Shown: positions 707-64,000 of the stretch, one piece after another
How positions within the stretch are numbered: the stretch's first letter is position 1
How the letters are laid out: every line of letters begins with the position of its first letter
From: Podarcis liolepis
Lineage: Eukaryota
Reading direction: 5' to 3' (one strand)
NCBI GenBank assembly: GCA_965112155.1
Contig: OZ218103.1
Length of the DNA stretch: 64,000 nucleotides
Translations under genes and position numbers: made by a program
Notes under the pieces: model-generated
Database searches by the model: none
Seen by the model: the letters and a program-made list of their open reading frames with translations, nothing else
What the model was told of the DNA's origin: nothing

Positions 707-11472
<10,766 letters not shown>

Positions 11473-22900: not shown

Positions 22901-46205
<23,305 letters not shown>

Positions 46206-46839
46206 CTGGAGGGAAAGGGAAAGAAACACTGGAGTGAATATACCTCCCACTTACCTCTGTCCTCTTACTTGGCTCTTCGCTTATTCACATGAGAGACCCT
46301 AGAACTGAGAATAGGCCCACAGGGGAACATCATGCAGTCTGGTCTTCCCTTTAACACATGTATTCTTCTTCACATTATCATGGTTAAAAGAATACATTTC
46401 CCCAACCCTTGGAAGATTTAACTAGTAGACTGATTACTCCAATCTGTGTTGGTTGTCTAATTAATTAAAACAAATTAAAAGACACAGAGAAGTGTTGTGC
46501 TTGATCACACATAGTATTTTTAAAAAACAAAACAAAACACAGCTGCAGAGGTAGAAGTGAGGAGGGGCTCAAGAAGGAGTGGTATTGCTTGATAAGCTCC
46601 CCACCTAGGAGCAAAATGCTACTGGAGAGGAGGCAGGTGTTCAGCAACTTGCAAGGAGCGGTTTTACTGGGGGAGGGGGACACCTGTTGGAGGGAAAGAG
46701 CTAAGAACTGCCTCCCCCACAGTCTTCCACTGTAATTGCAGCTTCTGGGACTGTATTTTATTTTTGAAAAAGAAAGGGAAAGGGCGAGTGGAAGAAGAAA
46801 CTACATATTGAGAAGCTGCTACCAGCACAGAGAGCTATA

Positions 46840-47067
46840 CAGTCATACCTCGGGATAAATACACTTCAGGATAAGTACTTCCGGGCGCGTTACTTCCGGG
46901 TTTCACCGCTCGCGCATACGCAGACGGTCAAAATGACGTCACGCACATGCGCAGAAGCGGCGAAACGTGACCCGCACATGCGCAGACATGCAGTTGTGTC
47001 TTACGTTCTGTTCAGGATACGAACGGGGCTCCAGAACGGATCCCATTTGCATCCCGGGGTACCACTG
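46840..47067. mobile_element. Tc1/mariner-type MITE with related TIRs and a different, CpG-rich interior
   Basis: TA flanks; ends cagtcatacctcgggat / atcccggggtaccactg. Confidence 0.75.
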
Positions 47068-48022
47068 TAGTTCATCGTCTGCCAGAGGAAGTTGCCCACC
47101 GTATACTGTAACTGACCTGGTGCTCCAGAAGCCACAATAAGAAGTATATAAATATGACTAATGTAGTAAGTATATTAAAAACTGAAGGAGAATAACTTTG
47201 TTTGCCCCTTATGGCTTTGAGTGGGATGAGTGAACTAATAATGCCAAGGGGAAATTCACTGTGCCCCAAGCTTCCACTCTGAAGAATCCCCCAATGGTAG
47301 CTTTGCTACAAAATAGTGCAAGTTGCGGAGGAAGTTGCCTGCCTGCCACAGAACAGCTGTATATAGCAAAGGATTCTGGGAAATATTCTACAGCGCATAC
47401 TCAGTTCAGTCATAGTAATGCCCAAGCCTGTTGAGCCTCACATTCACTCTGTACAAAGTGAAAGTACACCCTAGCACACACAAGCTTCTGTGGCTGCACA
47501 TTGCAGAAGATAGGAAGTTAAAGAGATAAAGGTGCCTTTCAGAGACATTTGTTTGCCGTGGTTAAACTTCTCATTGAGGAATATTGCACAAGTGTCTTCA
47601 TAAAATTTTATTTATAAAGTTAACAACAGATATATCATTTGGAAATTGACATTGAATTTACATTGCTTCAGTATTGCTTCAGTAATTTGTTAAGTAATTT
47701 GTGTTATAAATTTAAACCATCTTTATGGTCATTGCGCTTTTTTCAAGGGATTATATCTGAGCACTCAAAGCAACCTCACAAAAACAACTACAATTCCCAC
47801 ACTTCTCCAGGGGAAAATCCATGGCAGTTAAACCAATTTCATACTGGTTTGGGTCTATAGTGTAGACATTCCCTTAATCATCCTTAAAATAAGAATGTGA
47901 GAGAAGTTGTCACTATTTCCATTTTGCAGATATAGAGACACAGGCTGAGAGACAGGTTACTGAACCGAATGATAAATTCTGTTTTGACTACAATCTCCCA
48001 TTTTCAAAATAAAAAAATTCCT

Positions 48023-48096
48023 TCCAGTAGCACCTTAAAGACCAACTTAGTTCTTGGTATGAGCTTTCGTGTGCATGCACACTTCTTCAGATACAC
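48023..48096 (-). mobile_element. Penelope-like retroelement terminal fragment
   Basis: ccagtagcaccttaaagaccaac...gagctttcgtgtgcatgcacacttcttcagatac resembles squamate Penelope pseudo-LTR ends (from recall). Confidence 0.6.
48057..48094 (-). ncRNA. Minimal type I hammerhead ribozyme motif in a Penelope-like element remnant
   Basis: Minus strand reads GUAU-CUGAAGA-A-GUGUGCAUGCACAC-GAA-AGCU-C-AUAC: catalytic core, stem II hairpin, palindromic minimal stem III and 4-bp stem I. Confidence 0.65.
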
Positions 48097-48524
48097 ACTT
48101 TCCCATTTTCGAGCCATTGCAGAAGACTCTCAACATTTGGCTCCAGGTTTATGGGGCTAATGACAACATAGCTGTCTCTTGAGGGTCAGAATCCAAGAAA
48201 CACCAATGCATTCTAACATTTTCTTGATTTTCCCAACTCCTTTTCTTCTAAATGTGTGTGGACATATCTGTCTTTAACTGGTTTAATACATGTTGCCTCT
48301 CTCCAGAAAACACCACAATTTGCAATTCCCAGGATTATTTGATGGTGGCAGCAGCAGGGATGGGGACAAGGAAGGAGTATAGACAGCTAAACTGGGGCAA
48401 AACCAAAATAAGTTTGTGACACAGGTATGTCTTATGGCAGCAGCTGTGGAGCACAACAAATGGAAGGTTCATAATATGCACTGTAGGGTGCTTGCCAACT
48501 ATTCCCAACTATGTGACTCTAGTA

Positions 48525-48630
48525 CAGCGTTCCTCAGCATGGTGTCCTCCAGGTGGTTTGAACTAAAACTCCTATCAACTCCAGCCAGCCTAAGCAATGG
48601 TCAAGGACGATGAGAGCTGTAGTCTATAAA
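48525..48630. mobile_element. Degenerate palindromic MITE, related to 2051-2190
   Basis: cctccaggtggtttgaactaaaactcctatc...gatgagagctgtagtc. Confidence 0.45.
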
Positions 48631-51600
48631 AATATATGGGTCAAACCATCACAAGACGGGCTGAAATTTTGGGAGGTTGGAAAGTTACAATGGAATTGTC
48701 TTGTGGGCAGAGTGCTCATTTTTATTTATTTATTATTATTACTTTGTCAAAATAAAATAATAAAATTATCTTTCTATCTGGAGGGCACCAAGTGGGAGGA
48801 AGAATGCTCTACAGGATAGCCTATCCAAATATTGTTCATATTAAAATAAAAAACATTTCCCACATATTATCTTTTCCTTTTCAAATTCTCTGGCTCACCT
48901 TATTTTTAACAGAAGCAGAAAATGAGGACATAAAAACCACATATTCCACAGCCTGATAATTCTTTTGCTTATTCGTGCTTCTCCCCCTCCATCGTTCTGG
49001 GTTCTTCATCATAAATTTTATTTCTCAAACTTGGTAAGAGAGAGTTTGTGTAGACATTTTTACTACAAGCTCGCTGCTGAGCTCAACAATTCTATCCTGT
49101 CCTGCTATTTTGTCACTTTTTGTAAGTATAAATTCTTCTTTTAATATTTCGTAGCTGTTGATTTTTATAAATATATATATATATAAACCCAAGCTGATTG
49201 ACAGGCATGCTTTTGGTTTCCACGCCACTCTCCCCAAAGGAACAGCTGGGATGCCAGTGAGGGAGGAGGCTATGCCAAGGAACACAGGGAGGGGACAGAC
49301 ACTCTGCGTCTGTCCGAGATGGGAAGAGCTGGGAGGGAAGCATCAGAGGCAGAATCCAAACCATTCCAGGCTGTTTGGGAGGCAAGGCACCAGGAGTCAT
49401 GCTGAGCTCTGCTGATCTTGACTAGGCCACCCAGGAGAGAAACCACACGTACAACCAGAATGTAGAGGAAGGGTGGGGAACACATTCAGGCCAAACTTTG
49501 AAGCCACAGGCGAAGATGGATCCCAAAAATTAGAGGAGTCCTTCATCAGATGGTCTTTAAGTACAAAGCCTCTTTTTAAACAAGTGCCAGGAGATGGTTT
49601 TGTGCCATGTGATGGCCGGGACAGAAATATGCAGAGAGGGAGAGAGAGAGAGAGACCCTCTCAACAACCTTGTTCTTGTCATTGCCCAGGATGAGTGATA
49701 GTAGGAAGTGGACACTGGGAGCCTTATTTATTTATTAACAACGGAGCTGAAATGATAGTACATCTGCAAGTGTTGTGAAGAAGGGAAGAGAGGGAGATAT
49801 TCCTTGTAATTAGGGTTAATTTGGAACAGGACAATCTGAAGCTTCAAAGGGGAATGAGGAAGCCTCAAATTCCAACACCCTAATTAACCAGGGAGCAACA
49901 TGAAAAGACAAGGCAAAATGAGAGAAGCTGCCAAGTATGCTTTACATGGGGCACTCTCTTGTCTGATGGGGAGGGCGTTAAACTTAGGTACTGTCACTCT
50001 ATGTGCCACAGCCTCCCCCCCCAGCTGCTCCTGCTTAACCCCCCTCCCCTCCACTGAGAGGCCAGCATTGTTTGATACAAAGTTGGGGGAGGGGATTCTG
50101 GGCTACAGCGAGGTAGCAACAGTGAGCATGTTAATGAGGAGCCCTATGCAAATTCTTTTTTACTCCAATTAACAAAGGAAGCCCTCTCCTTTTTCATGCA
50201 AAGGGTCCCTCTCCCTCCTGATCAAACTCCCAATTGTACTGCTGCTTTGGCTTTGAGTATTAGATTGGATTATCCCTCATTCCACCCCACATGCATTGAA
50301 CACGTACACACCTCAGATATGCTATATCTCACTCTCACAGCCTCCCCAGGAACATTCAAATATCTTCAGAACAGCAGGGATGAAAACATTGGACCACATC
50401 CTTGTGAACATTAGGGTCTTCTTGTACTCAAGATTCCCAGGTTTCTTTAAGGAGAGGCTGCAAGCTCCATCCCATCAGTTGGCCCTTGCACTGTGTGGGG
50501 TCCGACAGTCTTACACTGCCCCATCTTGCTAGACAAGCCAACTGTGTAGGACACTCCTCCCCTAGCAGGGCCTCTTTGGCTCAGAGGATGCCTCACAGCA
50601 TGCTCCCAGAAACACTCCTTGTCTCCCCACAGCAGCAGAGCTGGGTACCAACAAGGGCAGCCGAAAAAGCAGAATTGGTTGGGAGCCAAGTGGAGAGATG
50701 CCCAGTAACCCAGAGCTGGCTGATCTAGGAACATCTCCACAGCACGTCCGGCAGGACTTGTGTCTAAAGGGCCTAGCCAATTTGCTTTTGCAAAGAGAGT
50801 CTGGGTTGCAAGCCTAGTGCAAGAGCATGCCTGGAAGTACCAGTGCCAACAGGGCACTGGAGCAGAGCTTCATAGCAAGGTTATTCTGTGGAAGACTTTA
50901 TTTCCTGCCACCCTTTCTCATTCCTCAGAAGCCACTCCAAGCCACACCCTGGGCTTCACTATGACATCCTAGTCTAGTAGATTCCAGAGTGCCGCTTCAG
51001 CCTGGCTACATGGTCAACTGCCCTCAAGGCAAGGGTCATCTCTTAACCCAGCTGAGAAATGGGTAGCTATGTAACTGAGGAGCAGGGGAGATCAATTACC
51101 TGGTGTTGACAAAAGCAACTTATCTCAGTCCTGGGTTGCACATGCTGACACCGTCTCTCCCTTTTCTCTCCCCCTAGGTTCAGCAGAGCCGCTTCCCAGG
51201 CAGTGGAACAGGCCTTCAGAATTATCCCCATAATTACAGGCTCTTGGATAAATTGCTGGGCTGGGCACCTCCTCCCTCCCAGCTGGGCCACCCAAATGCA
51301 GCCCCCCTGCTCTGTTTCCACACCAGCTGGGAGGCCCAAGAGAGCTTCAATTAAAAGAGACAGGATAGGGCTCTCCTCTTAAGGGCCCACCTGGCTTGAG
51401 AAAATGTGCGGACAATAAACTCCCCCCCATCCCCAATGAAAACTCCAACCCTCTTCTAGGGTAAAACCTCCTCTCAACCAATTTAGCACTACCATACTGG
51501 AGTAATCTGTTATTAAAGCTTCATAGTTATTATTATGGATATTTATGGTAGAAGGCAGAGATCCAGCCCCAAACACAAAAAAGTAAGAGATAATTTCTTG

Positions 51601-52379
51601 CCTCAAAGAACTGAAATTTTGGTCTGACTGGGCAAGAGGAAAGTCAGGCCCATAGAAGGAAAGGGACTGGAATTTCTCCAGCCCCACAGCAGGGGCTAAG
51701 AAGGGAACAAAACCCTTATGCCCATAGCACCTGCGGGAAAACATCACCCCATAGACTGAACAGAAAGAGTAGGGGTAGCAAGTGAGCAGCAGACAAAGCT
51801 CTTGAGAGAATCCCTTCTCAGAGCCTTCCCAGACATTAAAAAGCCCAGCTTTTATTCAAAGCAGGATGCAATAACACAATATCCTGTCTCCAAAGCAATT
51901 CATAGTAGTTTTGCTGTGGACATAGTTTTGTTGAAGGAGGTGACTCACCCACCACTTAGTAATAAATACATAAAGGCATCCTAAAGAGGGTGTTGCTGCA
52001 AAGGGAGTGTTCCTTGCTAACATGCTGGAGTAGTTAAAAGGGGGGGGCCCAGGGCCCAAGCATGTGGGCAGAAGTGGGACAGTGACTTTCCCCCTGGTAA
52101 AAACAGCAGCCGGGAGGTCAAGGCCACAGCAGGGACAAAGGGTAAAAGGTCCTACCTTCACATTGCTACCCCAAACAGGACACCCCACCCACAGGTAAAG
52201 AAAAGCACACACAAAAGCCACTTATATAGTTAACACAATGTCTTTGTTTGTGTCAAAGAGATATACACCCTTTTACATAAGATGCTCTCTCAAGAGCCAC
52301 AACTTCCAGAGTTCCTATGTTCCTGCTGACATTTCCTGTGCACACTCAAGAGAATCCAACACTGTTGTTGTTGTTTTAA

Positions 52380-53077
52380 AAATTATTTATAGTTTTCAGT
52401 TATTCATCTACTTTAATTGTATACTCTTATGAAATTGCAGGTTATTACAATAATCCTGCCAATGTCCTTATCTGTTTACAATTTGTTTGTAAATATTTAA
52501 TAAACCATTTCCATTCTTTTATAAAAAGTTTGTTATCTTGATTTCTTATTTTTTCCAGTAAGTTTTGCCATGTCTGCAAAGTCCATAAGTTTTGGTATCC
52601 ATTCTTCTTTCATCAAGACTTCTTATTCTTTCCATTTTTGGTCAAATAACATTTTTGCTGCTGTAGTCGCATACATTAATAAATTTCTATACTGTTTAGG
52701 TAGCTCTATCCCATGAATAGGCAAACTAAGGCCCCGGGGCTGGATCCAGCCCAATCGCCTTCTAAATCCGGCCCGTGGGCGGTCCGGGAATCAGAGTGTT
52801 TTTACATGAGTAGAATGTATCCTTTTATTTAAAGCCTCTCTGGGTTATTTGTGGGGCAGAGGAATTCGTTCATTTCTCCCCTCCAGAATATAGTCCGGCC
52901 CACCACATGGTCTGAGGGATGGTGGACCAGCCCATGGCTGAAAAAGGTTGCTGATCCCTGCTCTATCCCTACAATTCCCAGAATAAAAGCTTCTAGTTTT
53001 TTGTTTTGTTTTTTGAATGTTATTTTAAGCATATTTTTCAATTCATTATATATCATTTCCCAATAAGCTTTAACCTT
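52380..53077 (-). mobile_element. L1-clade LINE 3' fragment (ORF2 C-terminus), interrupted by a hAT element
   Basis: Minus strand reads KAYWEMIYNELKNMLK...EAFILGIVG / LPKQYRNLLMYATTAAKML...EEWIPKLMDFADMAKLT across the insertion, typical of reptile L1 ORF2 ends; contains a stop. Confidence 0.7.
52712..52960. mobile_element. Non-autonomous hAT element (MER1/OposCharlie-like) nested in an L1 fragment
   Basis: 8-bp TSD CTCTATCC (52704-52711, 52961-52968); degenerate TIRs; repeated ccggccc subterminal motifs. Confidence 0.8.
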
Positions 53078-54160
53078 AACTGCAAGACCACCACATACGA
53101 TGGTCTTTAAACATAAAATCCCAATAGACAAGAATCCAGCACTTTTGGCATCTGACTGCCAGAAGGAGGGATGAACAAGCACTGTACCAACAAGGGACAG
53201 CAAGACAAGAGTGCTGCTTAATAGGATTTGCAGGTCCCAGAACATACGTCAGCAAACATATTAGGCCTCTAGCCTTCACAATGTGTAGAACTTACAGTAG
53301 GTCCATGACAAGGGAACACAGTGCCTATACAGCATTTAGTATGAGATCCACCCACCCACCCACACCCATATTGCCACATCTGGCTATAAATACAAATCAG
53401 GCAGCCACTAATAGAAAGAGCCTCCTTAGTTCCCATTATTTATGCTAACATATTCCAATCAAGCCTCTAATTTTTCAAAATAGACAAAGCCTTTTGTGGG
53501 GGGTTGGGAGAAGAGGGAGGGAGCAGCAGAGAGGAAAGAAGACTCGTGTTACAAATTTGTACCAGACCCCGAGAAGTGACACACAGATACTTGGTGGGGG
53601 CAGCCATTACAAGCACTATCCAATAGGTGTCTGTAACTCTCATGCCATGTTGTTCCATCCAGTATTCACAACAGAAGGGGGGGGGGTCAAATATCATTTA
53701 CTCAGCTAATACTGCAGCTTGAGCACTGGAAAAATGCAATATGCATGAAACAGAAATGCTTCCTTGAGGAAAGCTGTCTGTTTCCCATATATAACAAATG
53801 AGTAACAGCAGTCTCCACAAATCCCATGTTTTCCAAGGAAGGGAAATTCCAACATTTGCCTCCCCTTCTCTCTTTATTTGTGGGAGTGGGGGTGGAGGGG
53901 GTAATTCTCCAGAGTGAAAGGTGCGCAGAGGAACAGAAATTCAACCTTGAGTTAAAAAAGCATTTGTAACTGTTTTGAGGTTGAGGAAAATATACATGGT
54001 CACTTTCATCACAAGGGTTTTTTGTACACATGGGCAGGAAACTTACAGCAAGCCCACATAGGGCTGCTGTACTTCCTGGTCTGATTCACATGGGCTTCCA
54101 AAGAAGCCCTTCCTGGAGTACAGAACTGGGCAGTTTGAATGTTACTGGAGCTCTCTAGGG

Positions 54161-55598
54161 CAGTGTTTCCCAACCACTGTTCCGCGGCACACTAGTGTGC
54201 CGCGAGATGTTGCCTGGTGTGCCGCGGGAAAAATTAAAAAATTCGAAAGATTTTTTTTTTTAAAGTCAAATTTTCGATTGGGGCGCCGTCACTAGATGAC
54301 CCCTGGGGTTCCCTCCCTCCCTCCCGCTCTGCGCCTCCCTCCTCCTCCTCCTCCTCCTCCTCCTCCGGGGAGGCCCTTCCTGGCTCTCGGCCAAGGCTTG
54401 GCGGCTGCCACTCACTCGCTTGCCCACCTGTCCCTCCATCCCTGCACCCGGCCTCTCCCCCTCCGTCCCCGGCGCGGGGGCTGCCGGGATCCGTAGTCCC
54501 CTCGCTCTTGGGCTCCGCGCCCGCGCGGGGTGCGTGAAGTACGTTTCCCAGCGTGGCCTGGCGGGCCGGGCGTTTTGTTTGAAGCGCTCTTCTCCCGGCC
54601 ATGGAATGAGCGCGGCGGCGGCGGCCGGGCGGGCAGGGGCTCTTCCGCGCAGACCCCGCGCAGCCTGCCTGCGCCCCCGCGGAGATCGGGCGGCAGGATG
54701 GAGCCCGGGGATCCCCGCGGAGGCGGAGCGGCGGAGGCGGAGGCTGCCCCCCAGGTAGGGCTGCGTCGGGGGGGTTTATTTTTGCAATGCTGCATCCGCG
54801 CCGGAGGGGACGCATCAGACAGCGGGGAGACCCCTTGGCGGGCGTGCAAGGCAATGCATGCGTGCAGGCGTTGCATGGAGTGCAGTGCAATGCAATGGCA
54901 ACGCGGCGCCCTGCATGCATGCATGCAACTTCCACCAGCGCTCCGGATTTGGCAGGTGAGGGGGGTCCCCAGTGGGTGGCAGAGAGAGCCGGGAGGGCGA
55001 AGGGGAGCCGGGGGGGGAGCAGCGCTGCTCCCCGAGCCGAGCCCGGGGGGAAACTTCGGCATCGTTGCGCCGGGTGTTGGAAGCGGAGGCTGGCAGGGGC
55101 CCCTCACCTGCAAAACCTGGTCGCCTCTCATATATTTCGTGCATTGCATTCATCGCCCGCTTTCTCCTCCAAGGAGCTCCCGGGGGCGCGCGTGGTTCTC
55201 CCCGTGTTATCCTCGCAACAACAGCCCTGCGAGGTGGGTCAGGGGAGTGGCCCAAGGGAGCACCCAGGGATTGTCCTGGCCAGGTGGGGTGATTTGAACC
55301 CTGCTCTCTGCCCGGTCTTCGTCCTCATTTAGCCCCCACATGTGCATGACTGTGCATGACTGAGGTTTTCCCCCCTCGTCTTGGCTATGGTGTGAGTCTG
55401 TCCTGTTAATTAATGGGGTTCTGCCTTCGGAGAAGATGAGCCAGCCCTCAAGGAGGTGATTATGTAATTTGCTAGCAATTCATGTCGCTCCCGGCGTGAC
55501 GCTGCGCGCTGATGTCACGGGGCTGTAATGGTGGTGTGCCTCGAGATTTTTTTCATGAAACAAGTGTGCCTTTGCCCAAAAAAGGTTGGGAAACACTG
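54161..55598. mobile_element. Non-autonomous hAT DNA transposon (Charlie/Buster-like), 1438 bp, CpG-rich interior
   Basis: Perfect 15-bp TIRs CAGTGTTTCCCAACC / GGTTGGGAAACACTG; perfect 8-bp TSD CTCTAGGG (54153-54160, 55599-55606); no transposase ORF. Confidence 0.92.
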
Positions 55599-58119
55599 CT
55601 CTAGGGAAAACAATTGCCTTGATTCCATGAGTAGGGCAACCCTATAATTTGCCCTGGATCGGGTGTAAGTATTAATAGCAAATATTGGGCCAGACTGAAA
55701 AAGGAAAGCACCTGGCATTAGACTCATGAGACCCTCCAGGGATGCAGTGACTACAAGGCATTAAGAAACATTTGTGTAATTAATCAACTGGACAAGAAGA
55801 CCCTTCTCCATGCATAAAACTGGCATCTACCTTCAGTCTGCCCTTTCCATTCAGTCTAGGCATTGTCACTACAAATAACAATGGAACACAGAGTTTGTCT
55901 TTACTCCTTGTATTAACACACATAATGTTCCTTTGCACCTAACAGGAGATATCAGAGGTCATCAAAGGAGAAGGGACAAACAATCCAAGAGCATGCCAAA
56001 AAATCATCCGGATAAAGTGAGAGGATAGAAACTTGCCTCAGGAAGATTGTTAGGATCCTGAAGGCTTATCCAAATGATAAAAAAAAAAAATCTCAGACAT
56101 AGCCCTTCACAGAAGTCATTTCCAGCAACAGTTGTACAATATCCTGCTCAAACCTGTGACACCTGTGCAGCCACATAACATATTAACACTTCAAGTTGCA
56201 CTGGCCCTTCAAGCTAAGGAGATTTTCTCATTGAAACTACATTGTAGTTTGTGTTGGGAAAATAAAATAACCCTGAAACAAAAGCACTTCCTTGATGGAA
56301 AACAACAACATCCTGAAGTACACGAGCAACAATTTTACATTTACTGCTGAAAAAGATTCTGGATTTGATTCATGGGACACAGATGATATAGAGTAAAATC
56401 CTAAATTCTAGCTACTTGCAGAAATCAGAAACTGGAGGAGGAGAGGTTTCAGTACCTGAAAATGTGAACTAGGTGGTTTCTGTACAGAAACTAAGGTACA
56501 ACAAATCAATTTCACACAAGCACTGAATTGACACCCGTGTTATTTACCTTGCATCCTTCTAACAGGAATTCTGAGTGAAAAGCATTTTCTTCTCCCAATT
56601 ATGAAGGCAGCAGTACTGCGCAAAGAGACTTAATATTTTTACTGAAAGCCACTTTAAGACACATAAAGAAAATAAGGGTATAAATTCCTTAAATAAATAA
56701 TAAAGTCCCACATTGCCTGCAAGCAAGAGCAACAGATTACTTTTTAAATTTTCAACATTTAATGCATGAAAACAAGGATACTAGTTTTACATTGAGGCAG
56801 ACCTGTTGCGACTTCAGGGGGTGGAAAGCTAGACATCAGCTGGGGCTCCACAGCAAAGACCCCACCAGCCCAAAAGTGTCTTGCCTAAGAGCCCCACAGA
56901 TCTTGAGATGGATGCTTAATGGTTTAAATAATTTCTATACTGTTTAGGTAGCACATGCTTAATATCAATTGGAAAATGGAAGCTAAAACATGGATAAATA
57001 TATGCCGTAGATGCCTCTTGACCATGTGTCCTCAGTATATTGTCCTTCATCCTGCCCTTACCCACTATCACTGCTGGAGATACAGAAGGATCTCATTTCA
57101 GTTGGGCAGCTGAAGCCCCAGAATTTTAAGTGACTCACCCATGATCAGAAACCAAGAGACTAAATACAGTAGAGGACTTTTGAGATTTGAACTGCTCATG
57201 TTAATTTAGCACACATCATCATTTTATACTGAGAAAATGGACATTGTCATAAGATATCTGAGCATGACCCCACCGTGCTTCACTCAGCCACCTGAAGACG
57301 AAGGGCTCTGTCACCCACTGTGGCACCATTCCGTGTACTGTTTAGTATCCATATATGTTCAGTTCCTTATTTCCAAGGAGCGGGAGTCACTTTTTGTACA
57401 AAACTTGTGCATACCAACTTACTTTAAAAAAAAAAATTTCTATACTTATTGTAAAAAACAATCCGCAGTTTTTAGATTGACTTGCCTAAGATCCAGGACA
57501 AAGCACCATCTAGTTCGGCATCTTGTTCTCATGGTGGCCAAGCAATCATTTGATTATCTACAGCTGAATGTGCAAAACTGCCTCACTATAATACTGTAGT
57601 GCTTCCACATTCAAGGGAAAGTATTCATGATCTGTTTGATTTCATTACTTGAATGAGTCTTAGTTGTGACTAGCTTTTGCTGATTGAACCCACCATTTCT
57701 GAATTGCAGTGAGAAGGCTCAGAAGCCCTGCCTGTGATGTTCGATCTGCAATGGTGGTTTCTGTCATTATGAACTTCTATTTGAACTTATAATTAACAGT
57801 CTTCCCTTTCTGAAAAATAATATGGAAGAAGCACCCTCTTATGGGGGACATGTTAACACTGCACGGTAAGCTGATCACTGTATTTCAAATATCTCATAAC
57901 CTCCATTTAAAATGCAAATCACAGACATTTAGGATAGGTAGAAGCTATGATGTTGGACATAGAAGTATGTGCAGCAGTGATTCTTGGTTGACACTTTTAA
58001 ATTGTTACTGTACCAGTGATGTTTCTGGTATTTTCATGGGATGGTGTGGCAGCAGCATTTGTTGTTATTGGTATGTTTTATATTTTATATCATTATAATA
58101 ATTAATAATAATAATTTTG

Positions 58120-58290
58120 TTATGTACACCCCACCCATCTGGATGGGTTCCCCCAGCCACTCTGGGTGGCTTACAACTTATCTAAAAACATCAGTCCTTA
58201 AAACTTTCCCTAAACAGGGCTACCTTCAGAGGTCTTCTAAAGTCAAGATAGTTGTTCATTCCATTGACATCTGAAGGGAGGGTGTTACTA
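58120..58290 (-). mobile_element. LINE (L2-like) 3' fragment
   Basis: Reverse-complement similarity to 3530-3722 (ccccagccactctggg, ccctaaacagggc). Confidence 0.55.
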
Positions 58291-59282
58291 CCGAGAAGGC
58301 CCTCTGCTTGTTTCATATTGCTTGTAAGCTGCTTTGAGACTGTTTGTCACCTTAGGCAACAAAGTAAATAATTAAAATAATAAATAACAAAGCAAATGAA
58401 AACAAAAAAGTTGCCATGGATAAAAATATGGGGCTTGTTGTCTAGAAGAGAAAGGTTATTCAGATCCACAATGGATCTCATCTCTTTTAAAAAGCAAACT
58501 AGACTGAATGTGACAAAACAAGGTAGTGGGTGTATAAAAGAAAAGCAGGAGTAATCAACTCCTGGAGACCATGTGCTAGTGGTCAGGGGTAGGCTTCTAA
58601 CTATAACAGCCAAAGCAACAATATTAATCCTAGTCCAAGGTTGTTCTGCATTAGATGGAGCTTAGAGTGCAACTGAACAGCATCTGAACTGTTGTCTCTT
58701 AGGAACAATCCAGTTTTTTAAACATAGGAAAGTGTGTCTTTGTAATGTCAAGAGGGTCAGACATGAATATGGGATCCATGAACTCCAGATAAAAGCATGG
58801 AAGCATTTTCAAGACATAGGTCTCTCTCACACATCTGTCTCTTCCAATATTCAAAGGATGAAGTTCCCCACAATTATTTGCTGGAGGGGAAATATAATGC
58901 TCTTAATGTATCAGTAAAGAACACGTTCCTGGCATCTGCTGAGATCCCATCCAATAGAAAACACATGCCTGTGGGCACCTCTATATAAGCCATGGTAACA
59001 TCCCGGAAATCATATATCTTCCCAATGTGCTTATTTAATAAGCAGACTACATATTTTCTCATTCCTTTTATCATGTGCAAACATGTGCACCCAATACTGC
59101 AGTGTACCTGCCGCTTGTGTTTCTGTAGGTAGTACAAGACTGGCTTACTTGATTTTATTTCCTCATTTCCAAAGCATTCACTGAATTTTGAAACATGTTC
59201 ATCTTTTGAGAGATAATGACTATTGCAAGATACAAGTTTTACAATGCATTGTTTTCTGAATTATAAGGATTTTGATAAATTC

Positions 59283-59410
59283 CAAAGGGATAGCCATGCT
59301 AGTCTGATACCGCAAACCTCCCCACAAAAAATAACTTGTGACACCTTAAAAACAGATTTATTGTGGCTTATGTGAAAAGAAAACGGTCTATAAGGTGCCA
59401 CAAAATTCTG
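59283..59410. mobile_element. Decayed Penelope-like fragment with inverted ends
   Basis: ttgtgacaccttaaa...taaggtgccacaa inverted pair, preceded by gatagccatgctagtctg. Confidence 0.4.
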
Positions 59411-59966
59411 TATATTTCGACATCAACCCTTCAGAACATTTTCGGTCACCTGTCTTCTAGTCCAATGGATGAAAGTCATCTGGGGTAAAGAAGTATGATA
59501 TTGATATATGTCCTTATGGGGTTCAACTTGACCTCCTATCATGGCTGTTTTGAGGGACCATAACCAAATGTTCCTCGACACCTTTTATAGCTCCATCTTT
59601 TCAAAATGATAAAGACAATGCCCCACCCCAGGATCCAGCTGGGATTTTTCTGCTTACAGCAGTTTGCCAGAGAAGAGGCTTCAGTTATCAGATACCAACA
59701 GCTGGGTGGACTCTTTGGGGCTGGGAGGAGCATCCTTCAAAGCCAGCATGCCGGAAATGGATATGGGGAACTCTCAGGATCCTTTTCTGCAACAAACCTA
59801 CTTGGTGCTAGAACAAGGGCAGAATCTTGGCTTCCAGAACAAAAGTTTAAATAAGGATTTAACAGAATGGACACAAGAAAACCAGAGTAACTTCGGGCTA
59901 TGCCCTGTACCATCCAAGCTCAATAGAAAAGGTAGACATGTAGAAAAGAAGCACTAAGGTCTATAC

Positions 59967-60148
59967 CAGCCATGTCCAAAGTCCGTTTCGGGGGCCTAAT
60001 CAGGCTCGCCGGTCAGTTTAATCCGGCCCCTGTAGCAGTTTACCTCAACAACATCAATCCTAAAAAAAGGTTAACAACTTTGGTCGGCCCTCAAAGCCCT
60101 TCACTTCATCAAATATGGCCCTCTTTGAAAAAAGTTTGGACACCACTG
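59967..60148. mobile_element. Short non-autonomous hAT element
   Basis: 8-bp TSD GTCTATAC (59959-59966, 60149-60156); imperfect TIRs cagccatgtccaaagt / agtttggacaccactg. Confidence 0.8.
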
Positions 60149-63100
60149 GTCTATACTATAGGAACATTCCAACCTTTCCTGCAAGTCTCTCATTCACACT
60201 TTGCCCCAGCAAATGGTTGCAGACAGTGGACAGTTTTGCTTTCTAATCTCTTCCTTGTGGAGACTTGAGTAGAATATCCTTTGGGTTGCTGGCCCAGTTT
60301 ATAAGGGCAGACTGAAATTAGTAGAAGTTCCTTTAAATTGGCCTTACCCCGCAGAAACCTCAAATAGAATGGCAACTGATCTACATGGACAAATAACCAT
60401 CCACTTCTCAAGTTGAGTCACACCCTTGCTATCTTCCCACCTTTCTAAGGGCTCAATTGATGACAGTAAGAGGATGTAAGACCCAATTAGAAGGGAAACC
60501 TGGGCCTTTCACTTGCTGTTTTCTCTCACCTTTGCATTACGAACCTGAGCAGAAAACATAATTTAGTTCAGTCAGAACTGAAGTTTGGGGTCTCTTATTA
60601 GACCATTTGCATGGACTTACTATGCTTGTGTGATCTGCGACACCACAAACTGTTCAAAGTTCATTGCTCCCACATTGTATCACCAACTACCCTGGTCACA
60701 AACAAAGCAGGACACTCCTCTCCTACTCTGCATGCCTGCATCCTAAAAGTCAGATGATTTGGGTCAAGTGGCATGGAAATCTTCCCCATGAGAGACTGCT
60801 CTTAGGAAGCCCAAGCCAGCACCACAGCCAGCTGATCAAGATTCCATAATTTCTGGTTTCTCCATAGGAGGGACTGTGTGGGTGAACTGTTTAGCTCTGA
60901 TCACCTTATAAATGAGAAGCCTCAGCTTAAGTAAAAGTATAGCTCTTAGGGTCAGTAAATCAACTCAAGTATTTCAAGTCAAGCTTCTCTTGAGTAGATG
61001 GAGCTTTAATGAAGGACACAGCACTCCCCACAGCTTGCAATATCTGATCTACATAGTTTAAGAAAGAAAGTGTACTAAAATGAAATCTGTGTGCTCTTAA
61101 AGCCTCTGCTGCAGAGTTCCCTGGTCCTGGTTAATTGATCTTTGGGCTCAACTTCAGGGTGACAAAAGGTGGACCTAAACATCAACAAAATGTCTTGAGC
61201 AGTGGGTGCTGGCCCAAAGACTGCTACATTGTCTGCTTGCATAATGTCTGTGTGTGTCCTGGCCCAGACTCTGTAGCGCTAACCACAAACCCCTCTGATC
61301 CAGGGCATGGAAAACTGCCATATTCAAGTGAGAACCTGTCCAAAGAACATATGAAAAGCTATTCACTGATTTGGAAGCAGGGCAGTGGCCCTTCCCTTGG
61401 CCCTCCAAAGCTCATTCTTCTGACAAAACACTCATCAACCAATCCTTTTGATACTCTAGCTACCTGTACCAGCACAAAGTGACCTCAACTGGGACATAAA
61501 AATACTCCTAGAACTTCTCTCATCATCAGCCCAACAACAAGAAGTGTGACTGACTCAGGCGCCCCACTGTGACAGATGCAGTCCTAGGTGCCATCTCCAC
61601 AAGCCATATTATGGAGCCTGGTGCATAATAAGTGCTTTGTTCTCTCTCTTCTTCTTGGAAATCTTTTGAAGAGACAACTGATGGAAAGAGATAACCCAAA
61701 CCTTGCTGTGGAACTGGTACTAGATGCTCAGCAGGGTATTAGTGTTCATTCTTTCATTTTTCTAATTTGAAAAGATCATAATAGGGGAGTAAGACTTATT
61801 CTATATTCATCTCAATAAATTCATCAGACTTTAACTTTTTGCATGGAAACTAGATGATTAAATGACATCTATTCCCCCCCCCCAATAAATAGTGCTATCT
61901 GTATCCAGCCTTGCTCTTTGGGTTCAGTCATAGTGTGAGTGCTGCAGTCTTGATAAACAAGCAAAGTGGAACCAGGTTTCATGAAATCCAGAGGGAAAAA
62001 CCTCTTCTCTTGACAGTGTTACACATAACTTGGATAATTGCCTTTTAAAATCGGAGGATATCCTTGAAAGAACTACCTAATCTGTCATGATCTGGACTCA
62101 GGAGAATAGTTCCTCAAAGAGGACTTCTTCAAGGACACAATTCAAAGCCTTGGAAATAAAAAAAAATGGACCTTTCTGCCTCAAAAGTGAATACAAAGAC
62201 AAATTTGTTCTACAATAGAGAGAGTTTCACTGGCTTTGGGAGTAGATTCTCTATCTTAGAAGCGCCAATGGGCCTCTTGTATGTATTCCCACCTCTTACT
62301 GATCCTAGGCAAGGTGCTTTGCAATAAGGTAAGAGACTTGGGTGATCTCAGTCACCCTGTATTTATCCCATGGATTGTGGATTCACAACTTATGGGAGTG
62401 GATTCACAACCTACTGTGTTCCAAAACCCAGTAGCTTATCCACATCTGTACATTCTGAATCTGACCACTTGGTGCCCTAAGCCAGGAGCATACAAGGTCT
62501 TTGGTATTTGATGTGATATTCACTAAGACAGTCCACTAACAGAATTTATGAAGCTAGCTGGAGGACATTTGTGTCAAAACCCTATTAAGGGTTGGCCCAA
62601 TACAATTTGGCACCTGAGGCAAACCACAAAACACTGCTCCCCACCCCACCCCGCCAGGGAAGAAGGGGTAGGTGAAGATCTACACAGGAACAAGGAAGTA
62701 ATAAATATTTACATCAGGATCTGTTGCCTCTGTGGAACCTGCCACCTGAGGTGGTCATCTAACCTTGCCTCATAGGTGGGCCAGTCCTAGCCCTAGTCCC
62801 CCACATCCTAGATTTTCTACAAGATGGGATATAAAGGCCTTCTGCCAAATACTCTGAAGAGGTAAAGGTGGTAACTTTGAAGAGTGTTATCTACAACAGC
62901 CAACCACAGAGAATATTTGGTGCTTCCATAGATTTTGGAGTGACACATAAGAAAAATTGGAGAAACAACTACTGGAAAAGGAAAAAAATATAGGAGGACA
63001 GGCAAACAGGTAGCAAGCAGACACAAGACTTAGTTGGTGGGAGGGCCTGACTTAATGGGGCATAAGTTCTGCAGGCCTGATCTAAAACCATATGAGGCAA

Positions 63101-64000
63101 ACTAAGGTCATTAATTAGGATAGGTATGAACAGCAGAACAGATAAATCAGAAACAAAAAAATAAGGTCTAAACATCAAGTGAAAAGGGAAAAAAAGGAGA
63201 ATGCTTGTTCTGAAGGACGAGAAAAATAATTTAAAATTTGCAGCAGGACTAGGGCTACAACCACATCATACCTCTTATATATTACAAACCACTACAAATC
63301 TGTGAAAGGTGAACTTGGGATGAGCATAAATAAATGCATAAACATGAACTGTTGCTTTTTTCTGCTGTAGGATAAATGATGTCCTCTTTGCTGCTCTTTC
63401 CCTGCTTCAGGTACCCTTTCCACCTTTAATATCCCTTCAACTGTCTTGTCCATTTATACTCTTAGACATTTGTTCTGTGCCTTATTATTTTACTATTGCT
63501 CATTATTATTTGTATACCTATTTTTTAAATTTGAAAATCTGCTGGGATGTGGCTTTTTAATTTTACATTGCACACAGCATTCTGCACAGCTGGCTTCTGC
63601 TGGAAAATAGCAGAGACCATTTATGCAAAGCTTGATCCTCATGGAATATTGCATGTATGACTAAAATAGGATGGGTACAGTTTCACAGTGCAATCCTATA
63701 CATGCCTGTTCAGAAGGAATTCCCAGAGTTCAATAGGCTTATTCCCAGATAGATGTTTATAGGATTGCAGCTCAAACCACACTAATTATGCACATATGTA
63801 TGCATCCTTCATTAACTGAATATTCACACAAGGGATCGTGAGAAATAAAAACTTAAAGTCCAGTAAAAGAGAAATAAAACAGCTATCTTTAATAAAAGAA
63901 ATCATGAACCAATATTGTTCCTAAGAAATGTACTACTTAGGAAATTCAGTGTGATAAAATATCATGTAAGTTATTGCTGTAGTGTGGTATTTTGCTTTAA

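Follow-up and report, generated by a model that had tools for sequence, protein, structure and literature searches.

The hammerhead motif and its host gene

The window (the whole stretch of 64,000 nucleotides analysed here) carries part of a Patched gene on its minus strand, and a minimal type I hammerhead motif lies in an intron of this gene (Table 1). The Patched exon at about 46015–46200 shares 35 of 60 residues with the PTCH1 chains in the PDB, as against 54 of 60 residues that match PTCH1 at a second Patched locus on contig C12 (both hand counts). Because the C12 locus is closer to PTCH1, the gene in the window is the paralogue and is assigned as PTCH2 by exclusion; its exons were followed down to about position 24,500. 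Exons 1 and 2 were located in the 50 kb beyond the window using short Patched motifs, which we take to identify these two exons. They are at about 75.0 and 73.7–73.9 kb (extended coordinates) and have GT/AG ends. Since both are outside the window, the motif is in intron 2, which is about 27.5 kb long, and it is in the sense orientation. A first-pass annotation, made from the sequence alone, had placed it there, and this placement holds.

Table 1. Features at the PTCH2 locus in the window, and matches of a second hammerhead family elsewhere in the genome
Feature	Position	Strand	Basis or remark
Minimal type I hammerhead motif	48057..48094	minus	4-bp stem I; core; stem II, a palindrome of 14 nt; AGCU palindrome; cut predicted at 48061/48060
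Penelope pseudo-LTR fragment	48006..48096	minus	alignment to full-length element L117; only family member in 114 kb
Four extra bases, 5′ junction	48097..48100	minus	bases read directly
Target-site duplication, upstream copy	48101..48110	minus	10 bp; 11 bp allowing one mismatch at 48111
Target-site duplication, downstream copy	47996..48005	minus	direct repeat of 48101–48110
PTCH2 exon 3	46012..46204, ends approximate	minus	1.85 kb downstream of motif
PTCH2 intron 2	46205..64000, on to about 73,730 past the window	minus	exon mapping
Different-looking hammerhead family, five matches	G000:C3:94505365, C4:53332035, C5:93282020, C15:41620326, C17:16800847

Read on the minus strand from 48094 to 48057 (38 nt), the motif displays the CUGANGA, GAAA and UH elements of the hammerhead core, with C3 at 48090. 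Helix I has 4 bp, within the 4–5 bp typical of the minimal hammerhead ribozymes (min-HHRs) of Penelope-like elements (PLEs), and an AGCU palindrome takes the position of helix III. The long helix II is closed by G10.1–C11.1, and the extra A that follows A9, at 48083, is the unpaired base between 9 and 10.1. The UC at 48062–48061 places the predicted cut between 48061 and 48060. The letters therefore agree with the motif, intact core and cut site proposed earlier.

The PLE min-HHRs described by Cervera and De la Pena (2014, PMC4209133) share with the window motif the type I core, the short helix I and long helix II, the unpaired base between 9 and 10.1, G10.1–C11.1 and the palindromic 15–16 region, as well as a pseudo-LTR position and thousands of genomic copies. 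All their sequence features are present here, and the assignment to the Penelope-type minimal hammerheads is thus borne out. The motif differs in its stem II (48069–48082), which is a perfect, loopless 14-nt palindrome. In place of the 6 bp with a 2-nt loop proposed earlier, RNAfold gives 5 bp with a 4-nt loop.

A hammerhead descriptor gives a single match in the 64 kb, both strands included. On 200 dinucleotide shuffles it matches in 11 of 200 when stem II is at least 4 bp and in none of 200 when it is at least 6 bp. An Rfam 15 scan of positions 46000–50000 at E ≤ 10 returned one weak irrelevant match and no hammerhead. The hammerhead search that had been suggested as a check thus detects the motif with our own descriptor and not with Rfam.

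It should be noted that intron 2 also has a GC-rich island (0.58) at 54001–56000, 19–21 kb downstream of exon 1, which is possibly an enhancer or internal promoter. Another dispersed repeat of 247 nt (90% alike) is found at 9600–9846, 43512–43758 and 47011–47072; one piece of it is inverted and lies at a distance of 1 kb from the hammerhead motif. A hairpin element with 52-bp arms is at 2057–2180.

A recent insertion from a young Penelope family

The motif lies inside a 95-bp insertion (48006–48100) between two copies of a 10-bp target-site duplication (TSD). The pseudo-LTR fragment extends from 6 nt before the core C3 to a T-rich run just ahead of the first ATG of the element, and has neither tail nor coding sequence. 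Aligned from 48096 to 48006 with the full-length element L117, it shows no substitutions in 90 aligned bases, one 4-nt deletion and one extra T. The extra bases at 48097–48100, together with the next three, duplicate a seven-base stretch taken from where stem II starts; they are likely a scar of re-copying that would have arisen by slippage, and other family copies also carry similar short re-copied pieces. The first two bases of the downstream TSD copy are the next two bases of the element (microhomology).

Eight of the 14 sequencing runs that share half or more of the sampled words were compared at 47500–48600; no RNA run is among those listed for the stretch, which carries no weight for expression. 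All eight (organisms A–F, seven samples, five studies) display the empty-site joint, 48006 to 48112. The empty-site contigs skip exactly 105 bases, i.e. the insert plus one TSD copy, and a single contig crosses both flanks in six runs (organisms B–F). Contigs drop rare alleles, thus an empty-site contig shows that the empty allele is present, not that a filled allele is absent.

Runs X1 and X4, from one sample of organism A, have in addition a 66-nt contig that reads without mismatch from the flank to 20 nt into the insert. Its depth is 30.6 and 17, about half (haplotype pairs nearby have 22/33 and 21/18), which suggests that this sample is a heterozygote with a probable filled allele beside the empty one. 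This is a hint and not an independent one, since the assembly may have been made from this very sample and the contig is under the threshold of 31 letters on each side.

On these sequence comparisons the insertion is very recent. The first-pass annotation had proposed a check of presence and conservation at the orthologous site in relatives, and had set beforehand that absence there, with no RNA ends at the predicted cut, would mark a transposon fossil; absence is what the eight runs show.

An exact search of the 1.57-Gb genome gives 9,879 copies of the 38-mer (4,999 forward, 4,880 reverse), while a reversed-pattern control gives none; a downstream 28-mer has 15,228 exact copies. L117 (G000:C4:88613500-88620000) is a tandem, full-length element; its unit measures 3,008 bp and it has an intact 910-aa frame. 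Pfam matches in this frame are RVT_1 (positions 441–586, E = 8.8e-12) and, at the C terminus, GIY-YIG (808–860, E = 2.1e-05), and a C-x4-C-x2-C linker is found at residue 770. Within the pseudo-LTR the hammerhead follows the stop codon at a distance of 184 nt and precedes the next ATG by 92 nt.

Neptune/Nematis EN+ PLEs (Craig et al. 2021, PMC8557442) likewise have one ORF with RT, a CX2-5CxxC linker and, at the C terminus, GIY-YIG, and they also show tandem copies, inverted 5′-truncated copies and an optional 30–40-bp tail at one end only; the window copy differs in being a solo tail-less stub. By the RT, linker and GIY-YIG features of that paper the family is a PLE of the Neptune/Nematis type; it is called Neptune-like here. 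A non-LTR retrozyme, which would consist of tandem non-coding units each with a hammerhead, does not agree with the single copy in 114 kb and the coding source element.

Since L116, L117 and L118, which are tandem and inverted full-length elements, are 99.3–99.7% identical and the L117 frame is intact, the family is probably still active. Min-HHRs are known from turtle and snakes; copies number in the thousands per genome (about 9,000 in Xenopus tropicalis), and most of them are single (PMC4209133). The lizard family is unusually uniform, with its 9,879 identical copies, and resembles the young D. virilis family in that paper. A lacertid min-HHR family is not named in the text consulted of PMC4209133, whose supplements may list a related reptile family. 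Among the papers listed for Podarcis and Penelope, none concerns this family, judging by title and opening of the abstract.

One stem II position was tested: just 65 family copies (roughly 0.6%) deviate there, not one of them with a compensating change. The different-looking hammerhead family, which has another stem II, retains a pair at this position in four of five matches. This indicates that the structure is kept between lineages whereas genomic copies decay neutrally. Judged from these sequences, the family is very young and its genomic copies decay regardless of structure.

A common variant of the family should also be mentioned: at the position equivalent to window 48061 a U replaces C17, which gives a 6-nt palindrome. 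The variant makes up about 12%–33% of summed contig depth (runs X1, X3, X6 and X9).

Very probably the 95-base insert is the front end of a Neptune-like Penelope element that was inserted very recently, with the hammerhead as a passenger that likely has neither activity nor a function for PTCH2. It appears to be an ordinary recent insertion because there are about 10,000 identical copies, it is missing in relatives, and the motif is likely inactive. The locus in the window is thus a recent transposon scar and matters little as a locus.

A domesticated intronic hammerhead that serves the host, like the conserved one in RECK, has next to no probability here. Such a role would fit a sense copy in an intron of a developmental gene, and amniote cases have been described: RECK, CTCL/C10orf118 and DTNB (PMC6155905) also have a type I hammerhead in a host intron. 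These hammerheads are canonical and conserved across species, whereas the window motif is minimal and missing in relatives. It lacks both the orthologous presence (all eight runs are empty) and the Rfam-detectable canonical type I structure (E ≤ 10) of the RECK type, it has no canonical stem III, and it shows no divergence from its source element. The empty runs include the run pair of the organism that also shows window-identical pieces. With one copy per 160 kb genome-wide, about 0.17 would be expected in a 27.5-kb intron, and a copy in this intron is for that reason unremarkable. Domestication of the RECK type is refuted by the empty orthologous sites.

Copy ends, presumed transcription start and template

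The role of Penelope hammerheads is still called unclear in PMC8557442. A young family such as this one is a large natural record of where copies start relative to the ribozyme and its cut site. A census was made of 94 copies, from 100 listed places in the first 4.55 Mb of contig C1, using a 28-nt anchor (shifted by one base) and extending each copy against L117; the exact 28-mer selection makes the census lean to young copies. A separate DNA search, in which 40 of 534 candidates were scored, is biased to copies that share the 5′ junction of the window and was therefore kept out of the census.

The 3′ ends fall into two groups, 47 of the 94 at +78 to +94 and 47 at +118 to +133 from C3, with peaks at +82 and +118 that are drawn in by reference variants. 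In 24 of 27 inverted pairs one arm is tailed and the other tail-less. The two groups reflect the optional 30–40-bp tail, which has been explained by reverse transcription starting at two internal sites (PMC11167929).

The 5′ ends display a pile-up just ahead of the core: 39 of 94 are at –11 to –1, 14 of these at –6, so that the rate there is 0.052 per base versus 0.002–0.011 elsewhere. No copy among the 94 begins at the cut site (+29 to +31), and the rate around it (0.0065) is like that of its neighbours (0.0046 and 0.0048). Genome-wide, 4,190 of the 9,879 exact copies match 6 nt further upstream; in 58% (5,689/9,879), an uncontrolled raw figure, the match breaks off in the 6 nt ahead of stem I.

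In the pseudo-LTR of L117, positions –37 to –7 from C3 include a TATA box, followed 30 nt on by an initiator-like site. It is the sole TATA box in the 250 nt upstream, and it starts exactly 30 nt before position –7. The simplest reading of the TATA box, the initiator-like site and the pile-up of ends is that the pile-up reflects run-off at the transcription start.

A splice acceptor, or stalling of the reverse transcriptase, could produce a similar pile-up and would leave the account of the insertion the same. The bases ahead of the pile-up do resemble a pyrimidine tract followed by AG, and there is a parallel in the D. virilis Penelope, where an intron ends at helix I (PMC4209133). Copies of spliced RNA would be expected to share an element leader upstream, and none of the 39 pile-up copies has one, which weakens the splice reading; they continue as an inverted copy (23), as re-copied sense pieces (5) or as neither (11). 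The position of the only TATA box also speaks against both processes, and together they are rather unlikely. Run-off at a transcription start is accordingly kept as the reading of the pile-up. Literature on a start-site pile-up of Neptune copies was not found in searches of mainly open-access texts.

The RNAs that were copied were likely uncut, because 39 of 94 copies start 1–11 nt before the core and none at the cut site. The census is in line with in vitro work on the Poseidon element PAc of Anolis carolinensis, in which the template is uncut RNA (Frangieh et al. 2024, PMC11167929). PAc is similar also in its two internal RT start sites bounding the tail, and differs in belonging to another clade and in an ORF that begins inside the hammerhead, the first ATG here being 92 nt behind C3.

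The insertion in PTCH2 would then have been formed as follows. The element endonuclease would nick the intron with a stagger of 10–11 bases. Of the two start sites, the reverse transcriptase would use the tail-less one, a T-rich site inside the element RNA that lies about 88 nt past the ribozyme core. It would copy through the uncut hammerhead and run off at the 5′ end of the RNA, about 7 nt before the core; a few bases would be re-copied before joining to the target. The window copy, which spans –6 to about +88, would be such a product of run-off on uncut RNA.

At the 5′ junctions of several members of the query-biased set (L007, L012, L013, L021 and others), the first bases of the element recur as short, stuttered repeats. 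This suggests repeated re-copying at the end of the template.

Partners, folding and possible cutting of PTCH2 RNA

A search of 114 kb (the window and 50 kb upstream) for a second family copy or core motif that could be a partner in cis found none. The predicted probability of the hammerhead fold is 0.12 for the bare 38-mer and falls to between 3e-6 and 9e-5 with 80–350 nt of native flanks, partly because extra 5′ bases pair with stem II; these figures are secondary-structure predictions on arbitrary cut-outs. Single min-HHRs did not cleave in vitro and dimers cleaved at a low level (PMC4209133). The Poseidon ribozyme of Anolis cut only with the protein of the element; it was dispensable for insertion, and RNA-seq gave no ends where it is cut (PMC11167929). 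The predicted misfolding and the missing partner are in keeping with the earlier suggestion that the solitary copy is probably inactive alone.

The classical dimer has a predicted energy of –11.1 kcal/mol. Two monomers together reach –13.6, and a duplex formed by the 14 bp of stem II reaches –30.6. Two copies are thus predicted to pair through the stem II palindrome and not through the 4-nt stem III, as a strand-swapped dimer.

The first-pass annotation had further proposed transposon-dependent cleavage of this particular pre-mRNA. As a property of PTCH2 this is not supported, given the 9,879 identical copies, the very young insertion with its TSD, the empty site in all eight runs, the want of a partner in 114 kb and the predicted misfold. 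Any such copy might instead be cut in trans during activity of the element, if the element transcript, its protein or both fold it into an active hammerhead, and a filled PTCH2 allele would then lose some pre-mRNA.

The motif has a fully intact core and is sense in a transcribed intron, and the intact, near-identical full-length elements make both partners and protein plausible. The Poseidon hammerhead of Anolis, in another clade, is protein-assisted (PMC11167929). Introns of Xenopus are depleted of retrozymes (bioRxiv 10.64898/2026.07.22.740005), in keeping with intronic hammerheads carrying some cost.

Against cutting in trans, the classical dimer is predicted to be weaker than two monomers and far below the stem II duplex, and dimeric min-HHRs cleave weakly in vitro (PMC4209133). 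The Anolis protein has been hypothesised to bind the first 172 nt of its own ORF, although that element is of a different clade (PMC11167929), and the window copy is without the tail and coding sequence, the region of this hypothesised binding site. That none of 94 genomic copies begins at the cut site also argues against it. Cutting of the filled PTCH2 allele in trans is therefore very unlikely. The wider proposal, that an active Neptune-like family spreads thousands of intact min-HHRs through lizard introns, some of them segregating, and that element RNA or protein triggers trans cutting of host pre-mRNAs such as that of the filled PTCH2 allele, is likewise very unlikely.

If cutting in trans were true, host pre-mRNAs would be cut in step with transposon activity, and a heterozygous animal would be a ready-made pair of alleles. 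Sense intronic copies that exist as both a filled and an empty allele would lend themselves to a clean test of host RNA cutting.

In L117 (–17 to +8 from C3) the core has a complement in the bases that directly precede the presumed start. The predicted probability of the hammerhead fold is 0.08–0.15 for an RNA starting at –7 and 0.0002–0.0003 for a read-through RNA. This complementarity could form a switch that depends on the start site.
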